Shown: piece by piece, positions 1,483-62,990 of the stretch
Layout: each line of letters starts with the position of its first letter
How positions within the stretch are numbered: position 1 is the stretch's first letter
DNA from: Ascidiella aspersa
Taxonomy: Eukaryota
Assembly: GCA_963924565.1 (NCBI GenBank)
Contig: OZ004611.1
Span: 24,428,001 to 24,492,000, forward strand
Reading direction: 5' to 3'
Length of the DNA stretch: 64,000 bases
Notes under the pieces: model-generated
What the model saw: only the letters and a program-made list of their open reading frames with translations
The model's database searches: none
Told to the model about the DNA's origin: nothing
Translations under genes and position numbers: made by a program

Positions 1483-1827
1483 GCACATAAAGTGCAAATG
1501 CACATCCTGTGAATATTTCACATTCACGCAATATGCACATTTGGTGCACAATTTGTTTAGTCAACCTCATACTTTTCATACTGGATGGAAAAGTTTACTA
1601 GCAATACTAACTAAATTATAATGTTAATACATATTCAAGTTGGGCATTTAAAAATTGTAAGAGGGTATTCCTTTGTTTGGTAACATGTTTTGGTTAAGTT
1701 TTAAAGGTGAAATGTTCCTCGTGGTGTAAACGTGTGGTTTGTGTTTTACATGGTGGAAAATGAAGATTGATACATGAATTTTAAACATGTTAACATAACT
1801 GTTATTTCAAAGGGCAATAATTAAATT

Positions 1828-2748
1828 ATGTCCAAACTGAACCTAAAGATAGGTTCAATACTGTGTTTTTCCACATTTCTTGTTATATTTCTTGGATTCT
1901 GGTGTAACGGAAGGTTTAATAAAGCTCACCCGGAATACCCTGCATCAAGCAAATCTACCCAATTTTTCACAAAAGTGATTTACAATCGAGTTGGAAAATG
2001 TGGCAGCCGCTCACTGAACAATGTTATATTGCAGCTTAAGGATGTGCATGGGTTTAACTTTTACACTTCAAAAGTGACCAATGTCACTAGACCCAAAGTT
2101 CTTCAACTAAAAGCCGAAGTTAAGTTTATCGAAAATCTTCCTTCCCCTTTTCTGTACTCAAGGCACATTCACTTCATAAATTTTGAGAAATTTGGAGTCA
2201 AACCTCTAGTGTATATTAACATGATAAGGGATCCAATTGAGCGATTTCAATCACAGTTTTATTTTAGACGCTATGGTGATAAGAAAAGGGCTGGTCCCCG
2301 TTCTGCTAAGCACATGTTGGAAGAACAAAAGGAAATGAACATCAATGAATGTGTTTTAAATAATCACTTTGAGTGTACTGGCCTAAAGTTGTGGTACATC
2401 ATCCCTTACTTTTGTGGTCAAAGTATGATTTGTCGTCAGCCAGGCAAGACAGCACTAGAAAGGGCAAAAAGGCATTTGCTTGACAATTATCTGGTTGTTG
2501 GAATACTGGAGGATTTCGAGGGGATGCTACAAGTCCTGGAAAAACTTATGCCAGAGTTTTTTGCTGGTTCAATAGACGTTTGGAGAAAAATGAGTGATTT
2601 AAAAGAAAGCACAAAGACATTACGTAAGCAATCGCTAAATCCGGAGGCATATGCCCATCTAAGAAATCAAATGCAACTGGAATATGAGTTTTATGAGTTT
2701 GCTGTTGAAATTTTTAAACAACTCAAAAATTTTCAACTCGGCCTGTAA
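1828..2748 (+). CDS. UST: Uronyl 2-O-sulfotransferase-like Golgi type II membrane protein (UST/HS2ST family), 306 aa, intronless CDS
   Basis: N-terminal TM anchor (ILCFSTFLVIFLGFW); 5'-PSB YNRVGKCGSRS (UST-type rather than HS2ST YNRVPKT); YINMIRDPIERFQSQFYFRRYGD 3'-PB; IIPYFCGQ; VVGILED; EYEFYEF. Confidence 0.88.
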   Translation: MSKLNLKIGSILCFSTFLVIFLGFWCNGRFNKAHPEYPASSKSTQFFTKVIYNRVGKCGSRSLNNVILQLKDVHGFNFYTSKVTNVTRPKVLQLKAEVKFIENLPSPFLYSRHIHFINFEKFGVKPLVYINMIRDPIERFQSQFYFRRYGDKKRAGPRSAKHMLEEQKEMNINECVLNNHFECTGLKLWYIIPYFCGQSMICRQPGKTALERAKRHLLDNYLVVGILEDFEGMLQVLEKLMPEFFAGSIDVWRKMSDLKESTKTLRKQSLNPEAYAHLRNQMQLEYEFYEFAVEIFKQLKNFQLGL

Positions 2749-4578: not shown

Positions 4579-7500
4579 TCAAAGTTGCTTAAAAAGCCAT
4601 ATGAGACCGTCCTCTAGCCCGTTTAAGTTGTCTACAGTAATGTCCTGGACATACCATGGCCGGTCTATGATGCTGGATAAATCAAGTGTGGCAACTAATT
4701 CTATGCAAGATATTCGAGGAGCGGCAGCATTTGCTGTACAAGATAAAACAAGAAGAGGTCTTCTGTTAATTCCGTACTGCTGGCTTGATAGGCCAGTTAA
4801 GTGCATAATAGAAGACAATGCAGATACATTGGCTTCTTGAGTTGGCTGGACTTCTTCATTGGCTACCTGGGGTTGTTCAATCTTTTGGGCTTCTAGAGAC
4901 CGTAGACCTTTTATTACCGCTTTCAATTCAAGCCTGTTGTAGGACAAGGTGTGAAGAGATTTATCTTTGGTCGCATCTACGACATAGATCAGTCTGCAAC
5001 TCTGATCCCTTTGTTTGAAAAAGTCAAGGACCGATTCGCGCAAGCGAAACTGTGGGTTACTCTCCTGTACAGGTTCGCTTGAAACTTCCTGTGTGCTGGG
5101 ATTCAAACTTTCTGCCATTGAAACTGCCTCTAAAATGTTGCTTTCTTGTAGACGTTCCAAACCCACTCTTCGTGCCCTGTCCCTACGGTTGCCAGAATAC
5201 AAAGCGATAAGATTAAAGCGCTTTTCACCTTTGAATTCCAACTCAACCCCTGAGCCAACCCCATCTTGACTACCCGGGAGAAGTCTAACAGTCATAAGAA
5301 GATCAGGCCTTGCCCATAAGAGGCGTCTGAATATTTTACTTGTATTCTGTGATTCCATTCCAGGACCAAGCATGATAACCTCGCCGTTTCCCGCACGTAA
5401 TCGCACCCAAAGGCTGCGAAGAAACCTTGGAAAGGTACGACTCTGCTGCATAATGTGACTTTCATCTGGTTCAAAATCACTGCTCGGAATAACCGGAGTA
5501 ACGCCGATTAAACCTATATTTTTCTGCCTCTGATAAGCGCAGTGAAAATACAGGGCTTTGTAGTTTACATTCTCGCGGTTGCTTAACTGCTGGTGAAAGT
5601 TCAAGATGCCATCCTGGTCAATTTTCTCATTGCTTTCCGACAGTTCAGGACTAGGCAACAGTGGGTTGCTGTTGCTGCCAATGCTGTTCCATTTGTTCAT
5701 GTCCCTGTAGAGCAATTCCCTCCACAAAAAGTCATCTCTACACACTTCACACCAGTGGCGGCTTGTCATTGACAGGTGACAGATGTCGGTTGTCTCCAAC
5801 AGCGACAGAATGATGAGCTTACAGTAAAAAGGGAGGTCATCCAAGGCAACTTCAGTGTTTTGATTTTCTGGGCCAGCTGATTCTTCTGTCGTCTGTGATT
5901 GTGAACTCTGATCGTTATTTTGTTCTGTATCTGTAAAGGCACAAAAGCAAATTTGTTTCATAAACGAATTAACTTTATTTATTGCAGACTGTGTAAGTAA
6001 TTATAAATACCGATATATCGGTTCGCCAATATTAGGCTTTTACCGATATATCTCTATTGGTAAATGTAGGCCAATATTTTAGTTAGAGAATATGATATAA
6101 TTTCTTCTACAATAAACAACTTGCCCATTTTTTAATCAAAAAAATTGGGTTTAGCATCACGCCAAGTTAATATGAAAAACAATAGTTAATGAAGGTATAT
6201 AAACTTAAAAGTTATTTGGATTTTAATTTCCAAAAAGTTGATATAATAAAAAACAATTAAAACACTGACAGAGGACTTAACAAATAGTGTATACAAGAAT
6301 AACACATGTCTAATTCTTTATCAGCAGATAAATGTTCAGGTTTCATAAGTTAGGTTATTCATCATTTAACTAACCATGAGTGGTTCATAACAAAAGCAAT
6401 AAAAGTATAAACAAGATGATTGGATACTGCCGAACACCACGATTGATTTCTGTAGAACAGGCATATTACAATTTTTAATTTCGGACACAAAAAGAATATA
6501 TTAAATCAACAGTTAATGGGCAAAATTAAGTGTAAAACAGAAAAGTTACAATATAGACACCGGTGTTGCAATGATTTAAGTCATTTGACTTGAAGTCACT
6601 TTTTTAAAATGGCTTGACTTTAGTCTTTCTATCAAAATGACTTCACTGACTCAGTCTTTTTGGACTTTGTCAAATAACTTGAAATTTAATTAGGTGTTTT
6701 CTATTGAAATTTATCCAAAGTTTTGCACATTCAACACTTTTATTGTTGTTTATTGCAGTGCTTTTCAACCCGTGGGATGGTACGCACTTGTGCAGATAAA
6801 AAAAATTGTAATGCGGATGACAAACGTCGTGCTGATGAAAATGATGTTGTAATACAGTAATCAAATAAGCTAAAGCGCCCACTTATGCGTTACAGCTACA
6901 GTAATATAGTCTCGTATAGTGGATCATTGCAGCTGAAGCTATATCGGTCAAGGCTTAGCCACACAGTTTTAATACATAAACCTTTCATTGTTGTTTCACA
7001 AATAAAACTAAAACAGGGTTGTTCCTAAGAAAAAATTACACTCGCCAGGCGGGCGAGCGGCTATCAATCAGCACTCGCCAGGACGAAATAACACTCGCCA
7101 AATTTGTTGGCATGCAGTCTGCAAATTACCGTCCTAGCGCGGTCATTTCTTGGGTTATTGTTAACCTGTTGTATGGTTTCTATACGTAAACCTTAGTTTT
7201 TATGAAAGTCTTGTCGTTTATTTCTATGCATGGATGAACAAATTAATTCCCCATAAATCAGTTTAAGCTTGAAACAATGTTTTTTAGCCGAGATATTTTT
7301 TACAATCTTTAGTGAAAAAATAACAATTTAGTAGCCACGGCCTGCCTGTTTTCCAATTTTTTTAAATGCTCGCGCTCTTTTTTATCGTATTCTGGTTTTT
7401 CTGTGCTTGAAGGACGTTTCACCGCAGGTTGCTTCGCGCTAGAAACAAAACGCCACATTTCGCCTAACACTATAGTTACTGGTTGAACAGCAACGCAAAA

Positions 7501-8580
7501 TAATTATGAATTTACAACTAAACCATTCTTTCACAGTTAACAACCATATGCCAGAGATTCTGTGCTGTACGACGCCCTATAGTGGCTCGTTTCAATTTTC
7601 CAAGGGCGTCCGCAATGGTTTCGATTCGTATCTTAACATAATTGCGATATGTAATATTCACAGACAGTTATTTTTTCAGCTTTGGCTCGGTTGAACGCTA
7701 TGAGCTTAAAAGATCGCAACAACATACTTGACTCATTATTAATTCTCAGCTACAGAGACTCATTATTAATTCTCAGCTACAGTTACACAAGTAGGCGATA
7801 TTTTAAAATACCGTAGTGTTCAGTGGGCCAAACGATTTTTAAAACGGGACAAAGAGTGTTTATTAAGAGCTTCAAACGTGACTTCGATTAAGCTTATTAT
7901 TTGTGTAGTGTTAAATATACTTGGGCCTTAGTGTTTAACGAAATAACTGGCGCTAAGTAATATTTCGCTTAGTAGTGTTGCTTAACACAAGTTGAAAATT
8001 TCTCGCCGAAGCCACTCGCCAGTGGGGCGAGTGGGTGTCAATCAGCACTCGCCAGGAGCGATTTGCACTCGCATTGGCGAGCGGGCGAGTGCTTAAGCCC
8101 AACCCTGTAAAAGTTGCAAACTTTCTGGGCTTGTTTCGTGCGGATGGAAATTTTAAAGGTTTAAAAACTGGTATATTGCTTTTGAGTTATTTTTTAGTTG
8201 AATGGTTTCTCATAATCATACAAATTTTATTAGTTTAACAAGCTAATTTATGTCAATGACTTGACTTGAAATTGACTTGCTCTCATATTGACTTGACTGG
8301 AACTTGAATCTTTTCAAAATGACTTGTTTTCCACACTGATAGACACGCACTGCGATGGCTTTTTGGTGTAGCAAATTTACAAGTAATTACCTGTGGCTTC
8401 AGCTTGAGGATTCGGGTTCCGACTTGGGCTTTTTGTCATGCCACTGTTCCATTTTGTAATACACTGCTCCTTGAAATGCCGAAATGCTTCAAAGATTGTC
8501 TTTTCATTATTTCTAAGGCTTTGATAATTGTTTTGGTGCAGGCCCATTGATCCTTGACAATTTTCATTTTGAGTTGTCAT
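4579..8580 (-). CDS. FBXO4: F-box only protein 4-like (SCF substrate receptor), exons 8580..8391 and 5930..4579, ~513 aa
   Basis: F-box LDDLPFYCKLIILSLLETTDICHLSMTSRHWCEVCRDDFLWRELL. FBXO4-type GTPase-like C-terminus: GPGMES, GVGSGV, IYVVDA, RPLLVLSC, PWYVQD, GLIWL. Donor ACAG|GTAATT (8391) and acceptor TTTACAG| (5930) join in phase 1 (G+AT=Asp). The track ATG at 5961 is intronic. Confidence 0.88.
6561..8338 (-). mobile_element. Non-autonomous hAT-like element (CAAGT-repeat family) in the FBXO4 intron, carrying a nested insertion
   Basis: Termini CGGTGTTGCAA...TTCCACACTG; perfect 8-bp TSD ATAGACAC (6553-6560, 8339-8346); subterminal GACTT arrays shared with copies at 17262 and 22868. Confidence 0.85.
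7014..8107. mobile_element. Nested non-autonomous DNA transposon with CAGGGTTG TIRs and 5-bp TSD
   Basis: CAGGGTTGttCcTAAG / CTTAAGcccAACCCTG termini; TAAAA on both sides (7009-7013, 8108-8112); subterminal CACTCGCCA repeats at both ends; internal 27-bp tandem duplication at ~7730-7782. Confidence 0.75.
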
Positions 8581-11062
8581 TACAAAATTTATAAAAGGCA
8601 GCAAACAATAAGTTTAAAATGGCAAAAAGTCCAAACTGAAACAAAATCAAAGTTAAGAATATCAAAGCCCATACAGAAGTAGGTTGGGCTTTGATATTCT
8701 TATTACGTCTTACTACAACCTCCAACCAATATGCTCGAAAATCAAAGTTGTTTAGTATTGTTCATCATTCAATATTTGCTATTTGAAGGCCTTTCTTGCA
8801 TTTGCTCTGTACTGTTCTATAACTTATTAGATTTTAACATTTGGGTCACACCTGTAGAGCCCTAAAATTTAGTTACAAAACATATTTATTTAAACTTCAT
8901 AAATTAAATTTGCCTCATAGTTGCATAATACTCAAAGAACTAAGTCAAAAAATAAAAATTAAAACTCGAACACAATTATGTTTCATACTTTTTGTGATTT
9001 GGCTGCTGTGAATCTTCACAGCATACCAGCTAAGAAGTGTTGTATTACATAAATAGATTTTTTACAATACTTGTGTGAGGTAGGAAAAAAGAAATAAAAT
9101 GAGAAAGTGCATATTGAACAAAATACATTTACTAGTAGCTTCTATGATAAAATAATATCCTAAACAAAACAATTGAAGGGTTACAACAAGATCTGCATTC
9201 TCTCGCAGGTGAATACAAACAAGATTTTTTCAAAAGCAAATTGTGCGCACAACTTCATTTTTTTGACAAATTCTATAACTGCAAACCAAAGATCTATATG
9301 AATATATTATTATTCAGTTCTAACATCCTAAAATTACTGCTCAATTAACAAATATATAATATATATTTTTTACATTTTAAAATAAAATAAAGACTGAAAA
9401 ACAAATACAAGTATTTATACACGCCAACTGGCTATAGCACAAAAGTCGTTATCGCTTCACGAAAACATACATTCCAGTAGTTGTGACTCGCCTTTTGCAA
9501 CGAAACCTTAAACACGTCACAGCAAACAACAGCCTCATTGTGAAACCAAATTCCTTTCAGTAAACAGAGACCAAGGCACGTTAGTCCAGTCGCGACGTCT
9601 GTCAGTTAATGGCTAATGCAATTTCTGTTTATTACATATGTTAGAGAATACCAAGTGATGTACTAAAATGTGTTTTACTCATGCTAGGCTTCAATGAACT
9701 TACTTAAAGGGATTGAACCTAGGCTTGAACTCACGAACTGACAAACCCAGAAACCTACCTCTTTCCGCGTGGCCAACTTGGTTGCTCTAGTGCCCCACTT
9801 AGCGGTAGTTCAACAATTGTTTATCCTAACACTAAATTTGCTAAAGAGTATAATAACTCACTTTCAGCATTACGAATCAAAAGTTTCAGTTGCTTAAAAA
9901 CGGCATCCAAATTTTATAAAAATATCACTGTTAAACATTCGTTATATTACGCTGGGCAGCTTCCTGAAAAACATCGTTATTTTAAAGATTTAAAGATAAT
10001 ATAAACATTTTTTCCTGTCATTTTAGCACTAAAAAAATATAAAATCGTAGGTGCCTTCAAAAAACTAAATAATTACAATGTAGAAGTAAAAACGAGAAAC
10101 AACGCAGTTTACATTTATAAAATCGTGGTAATTAATTTCTAAATAGTTTAAAAGAGCACCCATTGTATCTGATTAATATCTTTTATTGAATAAAGTAAAG
10201 AAATATTTCATGTTTTTGGACATATTGGTGGTTAGCGTAAAACATTCTCAATCAAAAAGTGAAGTCAATGGACTCTAAAGCAAAATCACAATAAAAACGG
10301 TTATTATAGGTGTGTTTATTAGACGCCAAAAGGTGATCTGCGTGCCTACCTAAGGAATAAATGATTTTTAACAGGCCGATAAAACGGAATTAGCATACAG
10401 CAAAGCACATGAAACCAGGGTTCCTCAGCGAAAAACCAGAGTAGCGATGGATTACAGTCACGCGTGCAACAAGTCAATAAAACTTCGCTCAAAAAAAGTC
10501 CAGGTACTTCCCCTGGTGGTAGCGGCGGGGCAGCCAGCGCAGAGCGCCAGAATCGCTGCTCTTGAAAAGTGATTTTGACGAACTGAGCGGGCGTGGCCAG
10601 CCTTTTGCCTCTGCTGACACGTCACCCTTATTGGCGTCATTCGATAACGGCAAATGTCGTTTGTCGATTGTTATATTTAATCGAATCACGGTGCGCCGTG
10701 GTTAACACAATTGACTGGCAATAAAGTTTTATCTTTTAACGGCTTTGCTTGTTAACTGCAAGTTGTGCGTTGACCAGGCGAACTTTGGCGAACCGTTAAT
10801 GAAAATCGAGGTTTGTTATGATTCTGCAAAAACTCACAATCGTATCAAAATTTCCAGACGCCAGCTGATCCATAAGTGCTGGTGCTGACTTGCTTTGTTA
10901 TTCCTGCTCTGAACACGTGAAGGCAAGTCAAGGCTTGTCCGCTTCCGAGAGTAAAGAGAAACAAAGGAGGAGGAGCTCCCACGCGAGAGGAGCGCGGAGC
11001 AAAACAGTCCGAGGGGAAGCACCTACACGTGAATCTCTTTTTTCCTTCTATTTCGGTTGGCT

Positions 11063-11100
11063 TTATAACGTTACGCAATGGCGCTGAAACATTTAGTCTG
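11063..11100 (+). promoter_or_regulatory. Putative distal core promoter (P1) of bZIP gene A
   Basis: TATA-like TTATAAC (~11063), TTACGCAA C/EBP-PAR site (11071-11078), Inr-like TTAGT ~30 nt downstream; CACGTG E-boxes upstream at ~10914 and ~11026. Confidence 0.5.
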
Positions 11101-11192
11101 CGATAAGTTTGAAACGTTCAGCTACGCTCGGATTATTGTAACACGTTTACCTACGATTTAAAAGCGATCTGCTTTTTTGCAAACTGCACAGC

Positions 11193-14100
11193 ATGGTGCA
11201 TATGATGCATTTCTTTGTCGACGATCAACGTTCCGATAAACAACGTAAGTTTAAGTTTAAAATAAAAACTTATATCGCAAGTATGATTTAAGCATTTTAC
11301 AGACGTAATTTCGCAGTTTTTCCTGATTGAAATTAGTGGACGAGCGAAATGTGCTTTTTTATTAGGATGTTAAAGTTTACGGTTAGAATTTTATAAAGTG
11401 TTGTATGTAAGGTTGATGGCCTTAAGGTTTTACGTATACCAAGCAGCGACGTAATATATCCAGCTCAGCCGTCTTTGACACGATAATATGTATTAAGCAC
11501 AGGCGCCCAGCAAACTTGCAAGTTCATGTTTTACTTAACTTTTAAAAAAGTTGATTAAAGTTAACAAATTTGGCACTGGTCTAGAATCCTAGCACAGCGT
11601 TAAAACAACAATTATTACACAAATGCATATTATTGGTGTCGGTTAGTGTTTGTGTGAGGGTAAGTCAAGTTTTATTATTTAATAATATTGCTTAACCTAC
11701 CCAAACCCAAACAGTAACCCACACCCTAACCCAAATAATGTTCGTTGTGGTAGGATTCTAAACCAGCACTACAAATTTAAATGTGTTTTCACATGGTGGC
11801 TGGTAAGATTACTATGGCCAGCTCACGTATTGCCCTACGAGTCAGCAGTCAAACGCTGCACCGCTAATTGTTTTAACAATGCAACAATGTCACGTGTAAC
11901 TTTAAACAGAAGTGCGTCGTTAGCACTCGGACCGCCCACGCGGGCTTTTTATTAGCAATTGATGGCGCGCGCCGATCTCGTGGTTCGGAGTGCAACCGAG
12001 CCTCAATAAGTATAAATCAACACGCCAGTCGTATAATTGCGGGACAATATACAGACTACTGTGTGTTGTACTTGCCTTAGCAGACCAGCGAAGACGGGCA
12101 GGCTTAAGACTGTTACGTAAGCAGCTGTGGAGGCCGTTGTTGGGTTTTTAATCGATACGCTTGACTCATGTCGTTTGATTTTAATTAATCGGCCAGCGAC
12201 GTCTTTGATGTAGCTGTTCCGCGCTTGCGATTTTTTTAAATAGTTGTCGCATTCAAGTATTTTGTATTTTGTGAAAGTTAGAAATTACCGGAAAATACCC
12301 AGTTATCCGAATTAATTCTCACTGCTTGTTTGACGTGGTACTAACTGTGGTTTTCCTTAAATACGGTTACAGTTTATTTGTGTCTCTTGTCAGAATAAAA
12401 AAGCGGGAAACTACTTCTATCGAAATTCGGCAACACTATCTGTATTCCGGGCTTAAAACTAAATATCAAACTTTCTTTATACGTTTCCGTTTCCGTTTTG
12501 CCTGACATTGGCGATGATTGCAAATCTTTTATTTTTGTCTTACAGGCCGCGAAACCACGCCACAGGTTCAGATCGACCAGTTTATCCAGGAGCTTTCGGG
12601 CGAACGGCATGACGCCGAGGCTCCGCTCTTTTCCATGACCAGCAACGAAGACACCTGCTCGACCCTGATGCAGCCCGAGATTCCACCGACCAACTGCAAC
12701 GGCGACTTTGCCTTCCCCAGCACAACCGTACAAGAACCAGTCGCGAACGGCGGCGACGTTCAGACCCTGCTCTTCGGCCCGCCAATCTTGCAGCGCCAGT
12801 ACTCCATTTCAACAGTCCTGGAAATGATAGAGGACCACACGATTTCGGATCGCACGCGCGAAAACCAGAACACTCCAAGCCCTGCCGTAAATATACCCGA
12901 ATCCCAGAATCGCTACAGCAACTTCAGAGCCCTTCCCGCCGACTGCAAAGCTTCCTACGCTCAGCCGTCCTCCGACCGCTACGGTAATTCCCCGGCGCGC
13001 AGCGGGGTCTCCTGCAGCCCGCTGCCCCCGACCCCCTTCGCCAACTACCAGGACCTTTCCGACACCCCCAACTCATCACAGTTCGACCTCAATGAAGCCC
13101 CAAATGCCATCCTGGGTAAGTGTTTTTTTGCATATTAAAAAATTCGCTTTCAAATTATTTTTTGTTTTGATAAATTAATGCTAAATGTTATTTTCTGGTT
13201 GACTTGTGAGACGTTTTAAACAGGTCCATTTCGTAGAATTATGTCACATTTTATCCTCACTAGTCCTTTTTACCGCTTGTAAAATTGATTAGTCATTTAC
13301 ACCTTTGCCGGACAACGAACGACATCATAACTCAAAGGTTTCGATAAAACCGCCGCCGATTTCGATAAACCGCCGTTCCACCATATACAAAACAATTCAA
13401 ACGAAAAAAATAAAAATTGGCCTGAAAAATCACGCCGCCATTTTGATTTTCGTGCCGCCTTTTACGATCTCCTGCAGCAGCAGCAGTTGGCAAAAAGTAC
13501 GCCCACTCACAAAGGAACACGTGACGCTGATCAGAGCGACTGGCCTGCCTCGGCACGCCTACGCATTTGGCGCGCGCCCGTACTGTGCTGCTTCTGATAG
13601 CGGCAGGTGACATGTACAGTCGACTAATTGTTTCTCACGGGTTCGCCTGATCGTCGGCCCGCGCTTATTTACATTCGCCCTAACTCCCCGAAAACGGCCC
13701 TAGTCGGATCACGTTACGCGGGCCCGGGCCGCGGGCCGCTTTAAAATGGCCCAGACTGCCTTTTAAGCACGGATTTTTGCCCCGTTTGGCAAGTTTTTGT
13801 GGCCGCTTAGTGGCCACACTTTTTTCAGCACTGATTTGGCGAAAGCGGGTTGCAACAAAAAAACAAAAAAGCTGGAAACAGTCGCTTTTAAAGTGGCCCC
13901 GCAAAAACGACCATGTAATCGGGTTTAAAGCTCGCTTTTCGCGCCCGACGCTGCTTGCCCGGGCACGCCCTTGAGATTAGGCGCGTCCGGTTGTGAGTTG
14001 CATCATCACTCGTTATTGTTCCATAGGCCGATCGATTATTTTAGAGTAATCGCGCGGAAAGCGAAACACTTCAAAGAAACGCAATAACACGTGCCAAGCC

Positions 14101-14826
14101 AACGACGGCGGCCAAGTCCCTTTCATCTCTAATCGAATAACTGTTTACCCATTAGGAGCACGAACGTTTGTTTTGAACTTAAAAATAGCAAAGGTTATTT
14201 AAACGCTTCTTTTGTATTTTACAGAGGTCGACACGACGATTTTCGAAACAACGTGCACAGGAATCCAGGAGACAAGCCATACGCCGCCGCCTCCGTTCAC
14301 ATTCAACAGTAACAACAACCTCCAACAAAAACAGCACTGCGATTCTCCGGTATTCGGTTCGGCACCGCTCCAGTACGTCGAATTATCCCGTCACCAGGAA
14401 CCAGCACAATCCGACAACCACCACCGACTGCTCACGAACGCAAGCTCGTGCCCGAACTTCGAGCCGATCAGCTCGCCGGAGACTGTTTTCGACATGGACC
14501 TGGACTCGAGTCCGGGCGTGTCGCGGCGCACCGTGTCCTGCTCGTCGTACAGCCCCTACAGTCCGATCTCGTTGGAGCTGGAGGAGATCGCCAGCATCCC
14601 GGAGGAGGAGTTCAACAAGCTGGACCGCACCGATCAGCGTCGCATCCGAAACAACATCGCATGTCGCCACTCGCGCATGAGACGCAAGCAGAAGAAGATT
14701 GAGAATGAGCGGAAGGCTGTTGGCCTCGAAAACGAGAATATCGAGCTGCGCAAACAGATCAGGCGTCTCGAGCTCGAGTGCAGCCGCACCAAGGCCACGC
14801 TGCTGCGTCGTATGAGCGAAACGTAG
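11193..14826 (+). CDS. DDIT3-like: bZIP transcription factor A, DDIT3/CHOP-like with intact basic region; exons 11193..11244, 12546..13115, 14225..14826; ~407 aa
   Basis: All joins are GT-AG phase 1 and keep frame (CAAC|GTAAGT; TTACAG|GC; CTGG|GTAAGT; TTTACAG|AG). C-terminal RRIRNNIACRHSRMRRKQKKIENERKAVGLENENIELRKQIRRLELECSRTKATLLRRM. bZIP call is certain; first exon and CHOP orthology are less so. Confidence 0.85.
11572..11770. mobile_element. Merlin-like fold-back MITE in intron 1 of bZIP gene A
   Basis: GGCACTGGTCTAGAATCCTAGCACA...TGTGGTAGGATTCTAAACCAGCACT; perfect TSD ACAAATTT (11564-11571, 11771-11778); CCCTAACCC internal arm. Confidence 0.85.
12011..12122 (+). promoter_or_regulatory. 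Putative proximal promoter (P2) and ATG-less alternative first exon (~12040..12116) of bZIP gene A
   Basis: TATAAAT at 12011-12017; donor TTAC|GTAAGC at 12116/12117 overlapping a TTACGTAA palindrome; sequence similarity to the TATA and leader of gene B. Confidence 0.55.
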
Positions 14827-52538: not shown

Positions 52539-54297
52539 TCACTTCTTTCCTTTGTTCACACTCCGAAAGAAACTCTTTTTGGCCGCGTCCACCTTTACCT
52601 CAAGTTCCAAGACCAAGCGACGGAGGGATTCGTTTTCCTTGGTCAGTTGGTAGACTTGATCGTTCAGCCAGTCCCGCTTGCATTTCATCTTTTTCCTGGA
52701 CTCCTTACAGGCGGCGTTGTTTCGCGATCTTTTTAGCGCGTGCCACGGTGATTTTTCTGCTACGGGAGATTTTGATGTGGACGGAATGTCAGCTGTGAGG
52801 TCGACTATCTCGCTGCGAGGCGAAGCGACGTTTTGGGTTTGGATTTTGGCTGGTTGAGTCGCCGATGACGCGGCAGTGTACGGATTGTGTTCCGTATACA
52901 CCTAAATGCGGAAAGCTATTCATAATTTTAAAAGCTATTTCATAAGACTTTTTTTGATACTTAAGCAGTGAAGTGGCTGGGTAACTTGCTTGTTCGATTT
53001 AACGAATTCGCGACTTTTCCGGCAAAAAGTACGGCCGTCCGACCCGCTATAAAATATTTTTATTATCACAGTCAACTAAGATAAATTGATTTTCACGTAA
53101 TTTTGTCAAAATTTCCTAAAAGTTTTGAACGTTAAGCTACTACATCCAGTTGTTAGTTTACTATACTTAACAAATTTCCCAAGAAAGGAATAAATCACAT
53201 CGCAAAACTATGGTTCAAATGCCTATTCAGTATAGTATCAGATTACCATCAGTCAGACGAGCACCGATAGCTCCGCTCGGGTATTTTATTGCCAATATTG
53301 TGCGACATGACATCCCTATTTCCATGTTAGCATCCTATACAAAGGCTTTAAAAGCGTTTAAATTGTCAAGCAATAAAAATGTAGGAAAATGTTTTTGGGT
53401 CTGGCGGACAGTGCCACTGACAATGATCGACTCCGCAGATACGTAAACACGATAAAACATGATGTATTGTACTTTATACTATAAATGCCATTAAATTAAA
53501 TGATGAGAAACCGACAAAAGGTAAGGTTGACAAGCAATAAAAAGCAACAAGTGCTTGCCCTAAAGCCGTATTTTCTGTAATACCGCATGTGGCCTGTTAG
53601 TCATACACTCATAAATCATTATTTTTTAAATGATTTTTTGTAAATGCACTAGAGATACAGAATACCAATGAGCAGTAAACAACTAAACATAACAATAAAA
53701 AGTGCCAGATTACGAACCGTGGCTTAGCCTTAGCCTACCTGTGGCTGTGGAAAAAGGAAATCCTCTAAACAAAATTCAACAAACTGCGTGTTTTGATGCA
53801 TCGCGTCTGCGCAGCTCGATAAACCAGAAGTGGAAATTTTGCCTTGGTTAAGCTTAGCGTGATTTGATCTTTGGAATTGGTCAGTGGGTTTGCTGTTGTG
53901 CAAATCTTGAAACTCTGTATTAAAAAACTTTCGTAGCGTTTTTGCATATTATTAAAATACAGCAATATTTTGCTAAAAATATTTCGTATACAGCAATTCA
54001 GCAGCTACACATTATACCTTGTCTTAAGTATGCTGTACTTTCCATAAATTGCCCTTGCAGAGGTGCCTCCACTTCAATGTAACTGTTGGTCCCGGTTACT
54101 TGAGGTAATTCCCCGTGTAAAAACTCACTTCTAAGTCTTGTGGTCGAACAGCTTGCATCATCAAAAGTTTGCATTTGTTGGGGAGAAAATGCGCTGAAAT
54201 AACTCTCGGTAAACGGAGTTTGCATAGGGGAACTAAACTGATCGTCACATTTTAAGGCTTCAATTGCCTTTTGCAGCGATGATCTACGCCTTTTCAT
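52539..54297 (-). CDS. DDIT3-like: bZIP transcription factor C (short DDIT3/CHOP-like paralogue); exons 54297..54018, 53914..53739, 52901..52539; 272 aa
   Basis: CAAG|GTATAA (phase 1); AATACAG|AG; middle exon open (EFQDLHNSKP...FVEFCLEDFLFPQPQ); CAG|GTAGGC (phase 0); CATTTAG|GTG. bZIP KRSRNNAACKESRKKMKCKRDWLNDQVYQLTKENESLRRLVLELEVKV. Same intron phases as gene B. AATAAA (- strand) at 52471-52476. Confidence 0.85.
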
Positions 54298-54539
54298 AGT
54301 CTAATATTAGCAAAAGCAGATCTACAGTAACTTTTACAGACTTAAAACAAGTTAAACTTTTACAAACATATAACTGAAAAAGCAGTAATTGGTTTTAAAT
54401 TGATATCTCTATAATAGGAATAAAATATTGGAACCTATCTAAAAACTAATCTCTTTTTTTCAAGTAGTTAAATATACAGCATAGCTATCGATGTCTATTT
54501 GCAACTATCAAATGAAACACTATTCTGCCTCACGTTCAG

Positions 54540-55340: not shown

Positions 55341-56575
55341 CAGAAACTTGTATGTGTTTAAGTGGCGATAGAGTGGCGCAATACATTTGTGCAGGTTTTA
55401 GCTTAGCGGGGTTTAAGCGGATTATGTACGGATATTGTTTTTTTACGGAGTGTACCCGGGGTGGCATAAAAAGTTACCTTGAATAAAAACTGGCCACAAA
55501 ACCACTACACCTATATGTTTTAACGATTCTGTGTTTTTGATTTAAAAGCGCCGATTTTAGTGCAGAGTTGGCAAATAGATAACCCATCACCCAAAAATAA
55601 AAATGCACCAAAATTATTGAATTGCTTAGGCTATAATACAATTCAGGCATTTTTTTCGATAGATGATAAATACAGAGGTAAATGTTTCCTAGGTAAGTTA
55701 GCGATTAACTAAGTTCGTAAATTTGTAACACTATTTTATAAAAAAAATCTTACTGAAAATCAAAAGCTCGTGTTTTTTGTACAGGCACTTATTTACTGTC
55801 ACGTTTTCCGTTATGATTTTTTTCAATTTTACGTGCAGGTCGTGATTGTTTTTTTTTTCTGTGGCTCTGTTTGCCATTTATCGGTACATGTGTCACGATT
55901 GTGAACATTTCGACGTTATTCACCCTAGATTTGTTTTCTGATCCCACGAATAGTAGCCAAAAAACCTCACTTTGAAGTACATTTTTTACAGTTTTATTTG
56001 AAACTTCGATTTTTGCCAAGTAGTACATCGCGAAAAGGCCATTGCAAGATTATGTACATAAACCACATACGAATAAAACGTGAAAGCAATGCTATATTAT
56101 GTTTATAGCAGGGTTTTCGTTTTTGTAATTTTTAGGACGTTTTTTTTTTGTTTTATAAAACTTGCAATGACACAAAAAACGCTGTACACACGCAAAACAA
56201 TCAATCGTTAGTTTGTTCCAACACAAAATTCCTGATAAAAACAGGACCAGCTTTTTGAGGCGTAAAGGCCAATGTTCGCACAGAAGCGAAAAAGAGAAGA
56301 AACGATCAGTTATCAATGCAAAGATATGAACTTCAGCAGAAAGATAGGGGAACGAAGAGATAAATAGCTATAAAAATTGAAACTTTACTACAATTTTACT
56401 AGTAATTGTCAAACAAACGTGCGTGTCAAATAACAGTAACCAACAATTGCCGTTGAAACGTTATTGAAATACCCAAAAATGCATGATACCAATTTATCAA
56501 GCAATCGCCGTGTGAAGAGTCGGAGCCAAGAGAAAAAACATAAGCAAAGTAGTTGCTTTTACTTTCTCCATAATC

Positions 56576-58749
56576 TTAATTTGCGGCGGGTTTCTTGCCG
56601 GTCATACGCTGGAGAAGGGTCTCCCGCGTCTTCTTGACTTCGACCTCGAGATTTGCAATCATCTTTCTCAGGTCAACGTTTTCGGTCGCGAGGCGCTCGA
56701 CTTTTTCCTCAGCTTCCATCTGTTGGGTCTTCTTCTTTTTACGCGACACTTTGCAGGCGGCGTTGTTGCGCGTTCGCTTACGCGTGTAAGAAGGGGTGCG
56801 GGTCATTTCCGGAAAGGTCATTGTTGAGGTGGACGGCGCCTCGCTGGTCAAGTCTATGGTTTCCGCTTGGGCCTCGTCGTTTAATTCTTCCTGGATGTCA
56901 GAAATTTCGACGGTGGACTCAACCACGATGCAGGTGACATTGTTGGATGTCAGTACCTGGATATGCAGAGGTTAATTAAAATACTGCTAGCCATCTTTAA
57001 TAAAAAAAACATAAAAATGCAGTTGCCTATACTAAAACATTCATACACATATCTGTATTTAAAACATATTGACTGTGACTTATTTTGTGTTAGTTGTTTC
57101 AAGTTTAACGTGTGTTGTACTAAATAATTTAAAATGTCCAATATATATTAAATCACTAATAAAAGTTGTTTGACAAAAATGGAATGCGAATAGTTACCTC
57201 TTGTTGTGGAACATGGAGGTTATTGAGCAGGGAATCAATGAGCAAGGTCTGCTGAGGCGCGGAGGTACTTTCTGATATTGTGTAGCTGTCAGAAACAGCG
57301 GCGGCGGTGGTGGTGGAGCAGGTCTCCTCGTTGGTGGTGCTCACAACACTGTTGTTGTTGCTGTTAGTGTTCGCTTCACTTTGCGATTCTAGAATGTAAG
57401 TAAAATGAGTTAGTAAAGGCTGACAACCTATCGCTAACAAAATCAAAACAGTTAACAGCATTCCAAGACAGCACATGCACACATATAATATCGGTATAGG
57501 TTTTTGTTATATTAAGGGTTATATTAACAATAATTTACCAGCTTCTGAGCATCCAACGGCGGCAAAGGTCTCCTGCAGCAGGGCTTCAATGTCGACTTCA
57601 TAGTTCTGATGAGCCGTAGCGTCTTCAGATGCAGATCTTGCCCGATTTGTGTCACTGTGCATTGCAGCCTGTGACAGATCGCTTGGCCAGGAAATGTTTC
57701 TATGTCTCGCCACAGAGGAACTGGGCCCTTCAAATTGGGAATAAGAAGGGGAGGGATGGAGTAGGTATTCACTACCGTCTGTGAACGGAGTCGAGATCGG
57801 GGAATCTTGAAGATCAGTGTCTTCTATTCCAGTGTTACCCAGAACTTCAATAGCCATGCTGAGAGAAGTCTGTCTTCCCATGCAGGGAGCAACGTCAAGG
57901 TTCTTGTTGATTGGGAAAGAGGAAAAGTTTTGCTGGGAAGCAGCAGGGAGGGGAGACATGTGGAGGTCCTCCAACTCACTGTAGGGAGATGGCGCCCAGG
58001 AGCCACTGTACATGCGGGTCCGGTCAGAGTCTGTTTTCTTTCTCTCCGATACAGAGTTCAGATCGTTAATGTTGCCATTGTTCGGGATAAAAGAGCAAGC
58101 CAGGTCGTCAGGGGTGTTCCAGTCCATGTCAGAGTTGTGAAAGTTATCATCTGTTAATATGCAAAAAATTCTTAAAATACATCGAACTTGTGTAACATCA
58201 TAAGTTAAAGTGAAATATCAAGACAAGTAAAATAAAAAAAGCAAACTGTCAAAACGATTAATTTGTTACACTTATTAGTTAATAGGCAACTCATTATTTA
58301 AAGATTGATTTCATGATTACCTGGCATGGCGTTACCCACAATACTGGGTAAAAAGGGGTAAGTGTCCCCCAAGGGGTCCATCCGGTCCTGGATGGGGGAA
58401 GTCGGGTTGAGGGGACTTCCCTGCCCCATAGCGACGTCGCTCTTCAACATTGTAGGTGTTGGCGTGACGCGAGATGCGCTGAGCATTGGATTTCGATGCA
58501 ACCATTCTGAAATGACAAGTGTGGATTATTATAAATAGGCGCATAAATTATGCAAACAGTAACAAGATGTATTCGATGTAAGTAGGGAGAAAGCAACAAA
58601 TTTAAAACCAAACAACGCAAACTCGTCACGTACCTCAAAAAATCAAAGAGGCTTAAACAACAACAGAGTCAGTCACGCGTGCCTAAGTCGTTATTTAAAG
58701 GAAAAAGAGATGTACCAGCAGCGGCGTGCGGTATCCTCTCGTCAATCAT
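56576..58749 (-). CDS. DDIT3-like: bZIP transcription factor B (DDIT3/CHOP-like, intact basic region); exons 58749..58716 (tentative), 58506..58321, 58150..57539, 57388..57198, 56956..56576; up to 467 aa
   Basis: GT-AG joins in phases 1,1,1,0 keep one frame. C-terminal YTRKRTRNNAACKVSRKKKKTQQMEAEEKVERLATENVDLRKMIANLEVEVKKTRETLLQRM. True start uncertain: ATG 58749 via weak donor GTACAT, or ATG 58486 or later if donor GAG|GTACGT at 58634 is used. Confidence 0.87.
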
Positions 58750-58829
58750 GTTTCGTATTTGTCGATTTTGCTACGCAAAGTGTCAGCGAGTCGCTTCCCT
58801 TTAGTCCGACTTCGCTGGTTCTCCACAGC

Positions 58830-59000
58830 AAGTGCCAACAATTAAGGACCCGCGTCCGTATTTATACACACGGGAATCGATCACGTGGGTTCTCTCGTTT
58901 CTTGGCACCCCCCCTTTTTTCTCGCCTGTTTCTCTCGCTTGCGATCCGGCCCGGGCATGCCCGCTGAAGCACGTGACTGTGACGTAAAAGGCGACAACGC
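58830..59000 (-). promoter_or_regulatory. Core promoter of bZIP gene B
   Basis: TATAAATA (- strand, 58866-58859); CACGTG at ~58882 and ~58970; TGACGTAA at ~58980; TTGCGCAA further upstream at ~59469. Confidence 0.6.
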
Positions 59001-60853
59001 GGCGCTTTTGGACAAAACAAGTCGGGAGAGTACCGAAAAGTAAAACACCACAACGCTTAAACACTTATTGCAACAAATTTCAGGATATTTCAAAGATTTC
59101 CAAAAACTTCGTTTTTAACAACCAAGCAAATGAGAAAATGTCTAGGAAAAGTGATTTGATTAGTAATCACATGATTCGATTTAAATTACTTCCCTAAATC
59201 ACATTTTTTTAAAATCATAATATTAATATAAAAATTCAACATTTTTTTACTTCACACAATTAACCAAAAATATCCAACCGAACTCAAAATAGCTTGTCAC
59301 TGCCAGTGCAAAAAAACAGCGCAAAAATTCTTTCTAAATGCCGACGGAAAGACTTGCCGGTTTGGACGGGAGAAACGGGTCGAAACCTGTTTGCGCAGGT
59401 TCAAACTCACACCCACGAAACGCCCCGGCCGGCGTCGCCGCTCCTGGTTACACCACAACAATCAAGTGTTGCGCAATAACCGGCGTATGACGCGCAATAT
59501 CAATCGCTCCTCAAAAGGCGGGAACCATTGGCGTTTGGCGCCTAAATACCACGCGATATGCACACGCAAAGCTTGCAGTCGGGGGTTTCTACGGAACCCT
59601 GGCGTTGCAGCGTCATTGCAAAAAAAACACAAAAATACATATGCGTGGTATGATTTAAGTTTTTTTCGATCTTAATTGTAAAATTTCAATCCTTTTTACT
59701 ACCACAACAAACAAATATACTGGGCTGTTTGTTAATACATCGACGATCACGGTACAACGTGTGCTATCGTACTGCACTCTTTAAAAATGTAGATTATAAA
59801 GTTTGCAGTGGTTGCGTGAAGGCAAAAAAGTATTATCTAGTTTTAAAAAATGTGCTTTATTTTCAGAGTTTAAATAGAATACTAAATCAAACCATCTAAA
59901 GTTTCCCGTCTACCCGCGCCTAAATTCATGACAAAACTACTTTTCAAAGGCTATAAGCATTTGCACGAGTCATTTAAACAACTACTGACATTTTTAATAT
60001 CCTTAAATTTAAATAACTTTATTAGAAAACCACCTTTAAATTGGGCTTTGTTGGCAGGTGGAACAAAGGAAACAAAAGTTCGATATTTAGAAAAAATAAA
60101 TTCTCGAATTTAAACCGGTTTACACTATGGGGTAACTGTAACAAGCAGTTCCTTTAAAATCGTTAAATGGAGAAGCGCATAATTGTACAAGTTACGAAAT
60201 GGACACTTAAAAAAAAAACGAGACCTGCTTTGTAGCCAACCAATGTTTGAAAAGCTCACCTGAATTAATTACTTAGCCTTTCGGCTGTTTAACGACCCGG
60301 TGAGGGAGGTTTGGTAAACTTCAGCGACGCCTAGGCGCACTGAAGTCTCATCATTTTCTTCGAATAGCAACAGCGATAATTACAGCAAATGTTTTGATGG
60401 GACTTAGGCTTAGTGTTATTCATACAGTGGCAGCGCCAACCCATCGAATAAAACCAAGATTTTGAGATTGAAACGTCGTCCGAAAAGTCGTTAATAGTTT
60501 TTGTAAAAATGGGCTCGTAAGTAAAACCGGAAATGGTGCTGGTTGAGACTGAAAACTGGTCAACGGTAGTGCAGCGAATCATCGAAAAACTGTCAAAAGC
60601 CTTGGGGAACCGTCTTTGGGAACACAGAGCTTAGCGACTTGGTAGGACTGGCCACGTAGGAATTTTGCGGCAAAGGGGACTTTCTCAGTACAACAACAAC
60701 AACAGCAAAGTCTAACAAGTTAATATACTCTTATGTAGCTGAAAAATCATTTAATGAGATGTATTAAAAGCCGTATAAAACACAAAGGCTGTGTACCTTG
60801 AAACCAACAAAGGGTAGTATAGCAATAACAAAACAGACCCTAGGTAACTTCTC

Positions 60854-61020
60854 GGCGCTGGTCTAGAATCCTACCACAGTTATGAAATCAACGCACAAAA
60901 TTGAGTTAGGTTGCCGGTTATTGGGTGTGGGTGGGTCAAGTATTATTATATTCTTTATTTAATAATAATACTTGACCCACCTTAACCCAAACGCTTGTGG
61001 TAGGATTCTAGACCAGGGCC
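60854..61020. mobile_element. Merlin-like fold-back MITE
   Basis: GGCGCTGGTCTAGAATCCTACCACA...TGTGGTAGGATTCTAGACCAGGGCC; TSD AACTTCTC / AACTTGTC (7/8); GGGTGGGTCAAGTATTATTA arm. Confidence 0.85.
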
Positions 61021-62864
61021 AACTTGTCGCCTATTGGCAATTATCAGCGTCTAGTTAAACATTAACTGTAACCGTAGCTTTGTAAAAATAGAATACCTCT
61101 GTTTGCTAGTACATTAAACTGCTAACTGTAAACTGCCAAGTGCTAACTACAACTTTTACTTTTGAAAACGTTACAATTCCAATTTCCTAGTAGCTTCGAC
61201 TGTTACCCACTCGCCGACAACCAGGCGCAATGTGACCTCACAAAAGACACGCCGGTTAAAGGGAAAGCAAATGGATGATGCAAGACTACGCAACGCGTGA
61301 CGTCACGAAATCACGAGACAGCGAGCAAAACGACTTTAAAACGACCGCTGCTACAAGGACACGTTTTAATAACCGTACAAATCACTATCTCTATTTTTAT
61401 TACAATACAGTGCTTCTGCAGTTAACGGAATTTAACAAATGCTTTACACAACATTTTAAATTAAAAAACGGAAGTGTGGTTTCTTTTCAGTTTCCACAAA
61501 AACGTTTTCTAATTTTAAAGACAACTGAGGCAATTTAAGAAACGCAGTTAACCCACCCGGGTGTGGAATTTGCTAAATATAAACAAACACAAATTATGTA
61601 GGAATTCATCGCTCAAATCCAAGAAATTAAATAAAACCGTACAACTTACTTAATGCGTAGACATACTATCAATTGCGGTTACAAAAACCCTCGCGCAACT
61701 ATTGTGTTATGCTCGACCCAAAACTACAAATCGTAAAACGTTAAGCAAACGTTTGTCGAACGAAGTGCTTCAGCGCTCGTGATGTCATGGAAAATTCCGC
61801 AGCAATAACAACAAGATGGCGGCACCGCTTCAAATGTGCAAGTCATGCTGCCGAATCGATAAACCACTGCGCGTAGCGAGTAACACGGTTCAATGAACAA
61901 AAAACGAAGCATACCGCAGCAATCAAAAATTAACATCGCTGTAAACCTGCTAAAACCAGTTTGAACAAGCAATTTTCAGCACAAGTCCAAATATGCTGCA
62001 ATAAAAGGCTCCGATAATTGAAATTGCTGCGTTCCAAAATACAGTCAAACCCTACAGATCGACCCAAAACTTAAAACAACAACTGACCATAACAACAACA
62101 ACAAATGGTAAAGCGTTAGCATTCCCAATTAAGTACCGCTAACATCAATAACAAAAATTATTGTTTTCAATGCAGTCAAATGATTGTGAAACAATATAAA
62201 TGTCAGCTGTAACCAAACGTTTTATTTGCAGCAAAAATACAACGCTTTGATATAGGCAAACTGTAAAGTTATGACATTAGCCCACAAACGCTGTAAATGC
62301 TAGAAGTGTTATTATTCCGTTGGAATCTAACATGCTTAAATAATAGGGGTACATGTAACTAGTGATAGCTATTTACCTGTTGTTGTGAAAGTTTCAACAC
62401 AGTCAAAATAAGAAATTTCGGATGAAGTCTGGTTCAATGAAGAATAAATTTCGTTCTCTGAAAAAGTGTTACAAACGTACATTGACAATGTATCCTGTTT
62501 GTAACTTACCATTAATTTAGATTTAGGCTAGATATAGAAAAGGTTAACTTACCACCGTTGATTTGCTGAGAAGAAATTGTTTTCCTTGTGTGAATCCTTT
62601 TGTAGAAATTCGGGATCACTTTGAAAGGTCTTTACACCTGATACAGTTGGCAAAGGTCACCAACTCTCTTGAGCTAGCAACCGAAGTAAACTTAAATACG
62701 TTTCGATCTGGGTTAGTACCGCAGATCGATGAAGCTTCAAAATCTTTTAACAGCTTTTTAGCTGATGTACCTCTATAGCAGTATTTTCGCATGTACTGGC
62801 AAATTCGCAATGAAGATCCGTAGCGTAAATTGTGGCAGGGTTTTCTAGCGTTGTGGTATTGCGC

Positions 62865-62990
62865 CACGGTTGCGCAACACTATTTAGCCGTCGGTTGGGG
62901 ATCTCCCTAGGTCAAAAGCTATTCCCCATTGGCCGGTTTTGTCACGTGGGGTGGCGAACCAATCGGAAGCCAGAAGGCTGAAAGAGCTCG
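62865..62990. promoter_or_regulatory. CCAAT/E-box promoter-like island
   Basis: TTGCGCAA (~62870), ATTGG (~62928), GTCACGTGG (62941), CCAAT (~62959); target transcript unknown. Confidence 0.4.

Follow-up and report, generated by a model that had tools for sequence, protein, structure and literature searches.

The ATF4 leader carries a uORF1 of 4 codons followed by a uORF2 of 60 codons in the -1 frame, with delayed reinitiation under eIF2-alpha phosphorylation (PMC11058473). For Drosophila Xrp1, two accounts describe several isoforms, some with an overlapping inhibitory uORF2 and others with none, the uORFs being 124 and 288 aa long and the isoforms differing by inclusion of exon 4 (PMC8514241, PMC13268129); in the second, the leader repressed but was insufficient for induction (PMC13268129). 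IBTK-alpha has a conserved stem-loop 11 nt downstream of its uORF2 (PMC9971878).

Here we analysed a window of 64,000 nucleotides from Ascidiella aspersa (contig OZ004611.1, positions 24,428,001 to 24,492,000) that holds a bZIP gene, gene B, on the minus strand; all gene B features below are on that strand and are given in window coordinates. We consider it moderately probable that a conserved out-of-frame ATG of its exon 2 likely represses the main protein, with three alternative upstream exons likely setting the route of escape. The choice of first exon, not that of splice donor, would likely decide whether this repressor is bypassed or an ATF4-like uORF pair is exposed. As in ATF4 and ATF5, a short candidate uORF1 is followed by a uORF2 of about 60 codons that overlaps the bZIP ORF out of frame, in the -1 frame, as in an ATF4-type switch, and several in-frame AUGs lie around the main start. 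Unlike in ATF4 and ATF5, uORF2 opens at position +2 of an exon common to the transcripts, leaving only 19-49 nt to the first main ATG; the candidate uORF1 is confined to one of the alternative exons, and its stop lies under a hairpin; and another first exon gives an in-frame bypass start. Like Xrp1, which is termed a C/EBP-family protein in its literature, gene B is a lineage-restricted bZIP gene having isoforms with and without an overlapping uORF2. The likeness is one of leader design, no Xrp1 match having been identified among the gene B homologues, and unlike in Xrp1 it is the length and stop position of uORF2 that are conserved, not the whole peptide. The gene B leader also couples a conserved hairpin to a uORF as that of IBTK-alpha does, whereas here the uORF1 stop lies inside the hairpin loop, and ISR control would be putative. 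No account of the leader or function of the gene B family was found among the listed titles and abstract beginnings of the ascidian and Ciona bZIP, uORF and ISR literature.

Gene B encodes a C-terminal bZIP domain (PF07716, E = 7.8e-11 in Pfam). Its best PDB match is C/EBP-beta, with weak similarity (E = 6.8e-5); the ATF4 chain 1ci6_A is not among its 28 PDB matches (E <= 1), and a separate locus of the same genome (L023, C3:12.64 Mb) gives an ATF4 match with E = 1.6e-9. Gene B is therefore not ATF4, whose orthologue is the separate locus on C3; judged by homology, it is an ascidian C/EBP-like bZIP gene. Its closest named homologues (67 matches, 10 of them named) are Phallusia, Clavelina, Ciona and Styela proteins, which form an ascidian family annotated as ‘transcription factor protein’ (Ciona NP_001072035 and XP_018672755, Phallusia CAB3254096, Clavelina XP_076824775 and Styela XP_039266516). 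Homology to the Ciona NP_001072035 family extends over the N-terminal motifs and the bZIP domain, the exon layout matches, and the Ciona and Styela annotations of this family include both long and short N-terminal isoforms. In a tree whose backbone did not resolve, gene B grouped with the Phallusia protein with weak support (81/81), and two C/EBP-like rows formed their own clade (96/92), separate from gene B. An assignment as canonical C/EBP alpha, beta or gamma orthologue was rejected, as gene B lies outside the C/EBP-like clade and its similarity to C/EBP-beta is weak. Two adjacent C/EBP-like genes (L004 and L005) are located in G000 at C3:20.247-20.260 Mb, which by a motif look like canonical C/EBP; the C3 matches were rejected as members of the gene B family. 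The zipper of gene B and its putative inhibitory uORF may resemble those of CHOP/DDIT3. The homologue search with the bZIP exon as query returned no homologue among longer proteins, and an Atlas search with gene B gave generic bZIP_2 clusters only (0.86-0.90).

Downstream of the alternative first exons, gene B consists of a common exon 2 (58321..58506; 186 nt, phase 1-1, both ends RNA-supported), exon 3 (57539..58150; RNA joints and alignments), exon 4 (57198..57388; RNA joints) and exon 5, whose coding part (56576..56956; Pfam, PDB and RNA) holds the bZIP domain and is followed by a 3' UTR to about 56143. The first in-frame ATG of exon 2 (58484..58486) is in a weak context and would give a 449-aa protein; further in-frame ATGs follow at 58450, 58429, 58381, 58327 and 58127. 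The start of Phallusia CAB3254096 is the equivalent of ATG 58486 (0/5000 shuffles). Exon 3 carries several family motifs, among them R-Q-x-S-L-x-x-x-x-E-V-L-G, which as R-Q-x-S-L-x-x-x-x-x-V-L-G (57840-57875, minus strand) is largely invariant in 7 aligned family sequences. This R-Q-x-S-L motif has no Pfam match and may be a phosphorylation or degron site.

Four RNA runs were placed on positions 55600-59400, the upstream exons (60260, 62377 onward) lying outside the placed region. X4 is stranded raw RNA of low depth (189 reads placed, about 6% of the run read), X3 consists of contigs with spliced joints, and X1 and X2 are unspliced. Junctions were listed from 3 reads with 2 starts, so those with two reads or fewer could stay hidden. 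X4 reads back the introns 58321>58150 (10 reads), 57539>57388 (9) and 57198>56956 (5). Upstream, RNA connects the exon-2 acceptor with an exon ending at 62377 (4 X4 reads and an X3 contig) and with one ending at 60260 (3 X4 reads, plus an X3 contig of 594 nt and depth 544), and the loose ends at this acceptor match the two exons letter for letter. Together these joints make up about 95% of the exon-2 depth in X3 (615 + 544 of 1222), a share that takes contig depths as flat and in which the 615 of the 62377 joint comes from a contig absent from the listing. The gene model of the initial annotation thus stands for the three downstream introns, but it had missed the two dominant upstream exons. 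The same junctions bear on SL trans-splicing onto the exon-2 acceptor, which would strip the leaders and make uORF1 irrelevant. Many Ciona genes are trans-spliced, at varying rates (PMC4691747). Here, however, every loose end listed at the acceptor belongs to one of the two genomic exons, and uATG 58505 would survive the addition of a spliced leader at 58506; we regard this explanation as extremely improbable.

The element on which the preferred reading turns is the out-of-frame ATG at exon-2 position +2 (58505). The initial annotation had given it a 57-codon ORF that overlaps several in-frame ATGs, the first at 58486, and stops at 58332, and this is confirmed (uORF2, 58332..58505, -1 frame), the overlapped ATGs being 58486, 58450, 58429 and 58381; the ORF ends with Tyr-x-Gly-stop at 58332-58343. 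Splicing from the 62377, 60260 or 58634 donor gives the uATG an A at -3 and a G at +4, whereas splicing from the 58716 donor puts a T at -3. Relatives were obtained from a metagenome scan in which 3 of 18 pattern matches were confirmed as loci (L011, L012 and L013), representing two species, as L012 and L013 are 99.3% identical and were counted as one. In all three species with DNA (gene B, L011 and L012/L013) exon 2 opens with CAG|A-ATG and has a length divisible by 3 (186, 150 and 177 nt, the last in L012), the -1-frame ORF is 57, 46 and 55 codons long, and between the end of its stop and the exon-2 donor there are 11, 8 and 8 nt. Position, frame, extent and stop position of the uATG reading frame are therefore held in 3/3 species, and both this ATG and the in-frame isoform of the initial annotation proved to be conserved. 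The distance from the uATG to the first in-frame ATG is 19 nt in gene B and 43 and 49 nt in the relatives. ATG 58327 does follow the 58332 stop by 4 nt in Ascidiella, but restart there was rejected as a conserved feature, the next in-frame ATG after the stop being 19 nt away in L012 and 184 nt away in L011.

With the main protein held fixed, the probability that the -1 frame first meets a stop within the final 15 nt of exon 2 is 0.019 for gene B, 0.011 for L011 and 0.024 for L012, and the probability under synonymous resampling that the -1 frame stays open for so long is 0.06 (at least 57 codons), 0.017 and 0.046, respectively. The length of the overlapping ORF in Ascidiella gene B alone is thus not remarkable (P = 0.06); it is its conservation in two other species that places uORF2 beyond chance. 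As branch lengths exceed 1 change per column, this conservation is not a matter of recent shared ancestry. The Tyr-x-Gly-stop end is found in 3/3 species, the Tyr and Gly codons varying at their third positions. In a post hoc count, 4 of 10,000 trios drawn at random from 81 background ends had 2 columns in common within their last five (P ~4e-4). The Phallusia protein is incompatible with Tyr-x-Gly and, compared by hand, would allow Phe-x-Gly-stop at most; judged from protein only, the uATG could exist in Ciona (Gly-Cys) and in Styela (Arg-Trp). Conservation of the whole uORF2 peptide was rejected, as the similarity is not significant (1222/2000, 166/2000 and 516/2000 shuffles). The database search found no homologue for this peptide, only Tyr-x-Gly-stop being common to the three, and the Pfam search found no family for the uORFs, with one sub-threshold match in L011. 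As regards a conserved-peptide (arrest) uORF, what the species share is thus this short C-terminal end.

Such conservation could also be a by-product of the main-frame protein, of splicing signals at both exon-2 ends or of DNA or RNA elements, with the uORFs not being functionally translated. Indeed, holding the protein fixed still yields the ATG 70% of the time, the conserved motifs adjoin splice sites, and the stem of the hairpin described below accounts for the C-terminal residues of uORF1. The main-frame residues, however, differ at both motifs: the codon at the uATG varies as Trp/Trp/Cys across the three species, and at the Tyr-x-Gly-stop site the residues differ among them, with none shared at the stop. 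Moreover, three different stop codons occupy this site (TAA in gene B, TGA in L011 and TAG in L012/L013), and it is the third codon positions of the -1 frame that vary. A shared RNA fold in exon 2 was tried and rejected (z = -2.9 in one gene B window and -0.6 to -1.3 in the other four exon-2 windows), which also speaks against a by-product. We consider this explanation quite improbable.

Of the two dominant upstream exons, the middle one (60260..60826, at least 567 nt if colinear; RNA joints) has the donor CAG|GTGAGC and no in-frame ATG. It is homologous to the L011 exon ending at 6899 (1/500 shuffles), whereas in L012 no homologue of the middle exon or of the proximal promoter was found (24/200 and 55/200 shuffles). 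uORF1 (60331..60444) consists of nested ATGs at 60444, 60423, 60354 and 60351 with one common stop, which they share with a further ATG upstream at 60582. From 60354 the ORF runs for 7 codons; once the RNA is spliced, 72 nt separate the end of its stop from uATG 58505. Three of the uORF1 ATGs align with L011 ATGs at 6730, 6751 and 6805, in the same frame and with a common stop, and the last aligned one opens 7 codons 95 nt before exon 2 (offset -95) in gene B and L011 alike. The stop codon of uORF1 lies in the loop of a predicted hairpin (60316..60348; -19.0 kcal/mol by folding); the predicted L011 hairpin with the uORF1 stop in its loop has -13.2 kcal/mol, and regional folding around these hairpins gives z = -3.5 in gene B and -3.0 in L011. 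No counterpart of uORF1 or the hairpin was found in L012, so that they are present in one of the two relatives. Conservation of the uORF1 peptide was rejected (similarity not significant, 3375/5000 shuffles). Longer ORFs in the uORF1 frame, of 30-83 codons, begin further upstream in the middle exon. As far as sequence goes, the 7-codon ORF of the middle exon is a better candidate for uORF1 than the 26-codon ORF of the proximal exon that had been put forward for this role.

The middle exon also bears on a simpler account, in which the overlapping ORF serves as a constitutive dampener or NMD trigger, and promoter choice and leaky scanning set the output with no eIF2-alpha gating. The same uORF2 conservation data serve this account as well, as do the short distance from the uATG to the main ATG, the stop held close ahead of the exon-2 donor and followed by more introns, and the Xrp1 leader, which alone only repressed (PMC13268129). 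A constitutive dampener alone nevertheless leaves the conserved short uORF1, the fixed 72-nt spacing and the hairpin on the stop without explanation, and we think it unlikely, while still deserving consideration.

The third, proximal first exon is the one on which the initial annotation had centred; the ATGs, uORF lengths and donors named there are all present in the sequence. Via the donor CTG|GTACAT at 58716 (6/9 consensus matches), ATG 58749 is in frame with the main ORF and gives 467 aa, the coding part of the exon being 58716..58749. If that donor is skipped, either by use of the stronger donor GAG|GTACGT at 58634 (58628..58634; 7/9 consensus matches, putative use, no joint listed) or by retention of the intron, the same ATG opens a 26-codon uORF (58669..58749) whose stop ends at 58669. 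The in-frame N-terminus through 58716 aligns to Ciona XP_018672755 and Styela XP_039266516 X1 (5/5000 and 47/5000 shuffles), and L011 has a homologous short ATGATT exon with an in-frame G|GTACGT donor. Competition between the two donors had been taken as the main switch, giving either the in-frame N-terminus or a two-uORF leader. Both donors exist, with 58634 being nearer to the consensus, 3-4 sense X4 reads over 58643-58678 pass the 58716 donor, the in-frame form is conserved, and the choice of donor would also alter the -3 base of the uATG. But neither 58716>58506 nor 58634>58506 is listed in X4 or X3 (3-read threshold, low depth), where the two other upstream exons were, and L011 lacks an equivalent downstream donor. 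Its alternative donor GTTAGT keeps the frame, so there is no spliced uORF from its ATG exon, and the 31 codons that this exon can open arise by intron retention only. Furthermore, some X4 coverage continues beyond 58634 into the intron (163 base-reads in 58521-58647), and neither the restart ATG at 4 nt nor the read-through 26-codon peptide is conserved, the latter having been rejected beyond its first 5-6 residues (1855/5000 and 562/5000 shuffles). Donor choice as the main switch is thus very improbable.

X4 coverage is close to zero above about 58790, which, with the reads over 58643-58678, suggests a minor start at the proximal exon, most transcripts from which run beyond the 58716 donor. 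Over the first intron extends a 1657-nt X3 contig with depth 137 (58586-59400), the other introns having depths of 0-51, and this high depth may reflect slow splicing, retention or proximal transcripts. The proximal promoter has a TATA-like box (58860..58866), with a predicted start at about 58840-58790 and X4 coverage from about 58790, and a conserved block (58914..59038) identified by local alignment to L011 (0/1000 shuffles). An element within it, at 58953-58976 (minus strand), is conserved in L011 at 8029-8055. We take its decamer at 58953-58962 to be like a p53-type half-site, and the whole element, in both loci, to resemble paired p53 half-sites adjoining CRE-like and E-box motifs. This conserved p53-like element hints at stress- or damage-induced transcription.

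The distal mini-exon (62377..62457, the 5' boundary being putative; backed by 4 X4 reads plus an X3 contig) has no ATG, is open in the main frame and is joined to exon 2 by the donor CAG|GTAAAT. It is homologous to L012 7989-8068 (36/80 identical, 11/20000 shuffles), and no L011 homologue of the distal region (83/200 shuffles) or of the mini-exon was found. As the proximal and middle exons are matched in L011 and the distal one in L012, each upstream exon has a counterpart in one relative. A putative distal first exon, predicted from sequence, would carry a 58-codon uORF (62616..62792), and in-frame ATGs at 62512 and 62482 would come into use only on retention of 62552-62458. A symmetric arrangement, ATTGG-N9-CCACGTGA-N9-CCAAT, precedes the putative distal start at 62925-62962 (minus strand), together with a C/EBP-like palindrome near 62870. 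The distal CCAAT/CACGTG combination was rejected as an ERSE, as compared with the ERSE consensus its CCAAT box is in the wrong orientation.

Gene B has relatives within the window. A paralogous bZIP gene, gene A, lies at 10670-14826 (plus strand), and gene C, the third of the family, adjoins gene B on its downstream side at 52539-54300 (minus strand), with an R-x-x-S-L motif near its start and a bZIP exon. A predicted upstream exon of gene A (donor 11244) has in-frame ATGs and its proximal exon (donor 12116) has none; the first ATG of its shared exon, at 12609, opens a 9-codon out-of-frame ORF whose TGA overlaps the main ATG at 12635. From its predicted exons, gene A would follow a similar logic, with first exons with and without in-frame ATGs, and we count this in favour of the gene B model. 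The proximal exons of both genes carry one and the same 10-base motif downstream of a TATA-like box (12084-12093, plus strand, in gene A and 58810-58819, minus strand, in gene B), and it occurs nowhere else in the window. Short elements that are related and have inverted ends, recognised by eye, lie upstream of gene B and gene A exons (60860-61020 and 11575-11770) and are possibly MITE-like insertions. Two long single ORFs, at 1825-2748 (plus strand) and 4579-6000 (minus strand), appear by eye to be sulfotransferase-like and F-box-like, and were used for codon usage.

Under first-exon choice, the three transcript types would behave differently. After the 60260 and 62377 donors, uATG 58505 in its strong context would capture scanning ribosomes and lower translation of the main ORF. 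On the middle-exon mRNA, ribosomes would finish uORF1, rescan 72 nt and normally start at uATG 58505, whereby the main ATGs would be skipped and the mRNA probably exposed to NMD. When eIF2 ternary complex is scarce, some of them would pass 58505 and start at 58486-58327 or at 58127, as in ATF4. Proximal transcripts spliced at 58716 would start in frame upstream of the trap and so bypass it, while those skipping 58716 would fall back under uORF control, which is the switch of the initial annotation, here a minor route at most. Translation of, and repression by, either uORF would be expected under this model, as would induction by stress. Several points weigh against the model. The gap of 19 nt between the uATG and 58486 (43 and 49 nt in the relatives) would be a short window for delayed reinitiation, and the ORFs of 30-83 codons upstream of uORF1 in its frame would reinitiate poorly. 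There are also just two independent relatives with DNA, and uORF1 and the hairpin occur in one of them. The overall dissimilarity of the uORF2 peptides, the post hoc nature of the Tyr-x-Gly motif, the Xrp1 leader, which repressed but was insufficient for induction (PMC13268129), and the low RNA depth count against it as well. A more specific version is offered tentatively, as possible and on balance rather doubtful: an independent ascidian ATF4-like stress switch on a tunicate-specific bZIP, in which uORF1 would be hairpin-capped, the exon-long overlapping ORF would act at termination through Tyr-x-Gly-stop, and a promoter toggle would select between the stress-gated and the bypass form.

The leader design itself is already known; new as variants are its occurrence on this bZIP family, its exon-bound geometry, the bypass by a first exon and two small conserved elements. 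The switch is likely relocated from the choice of donor to the choice of first exon, and for annotation this means that the N-terminus of gene B depends on the first exon. Two compact elements lend themselves to mutation, namely the stop codon in the hairpin loop and the three-codon termination motif in the -1 frame of a coding exon. If translation data agree, gene B would show that the ATF4 leader design exists separately in a chordate bZIP family that is so far uncharacterised. If the reading is true, the sister group of the vertebrates would thereby have a candidate effector of the stress response, comparable to Xrp1 in flies.
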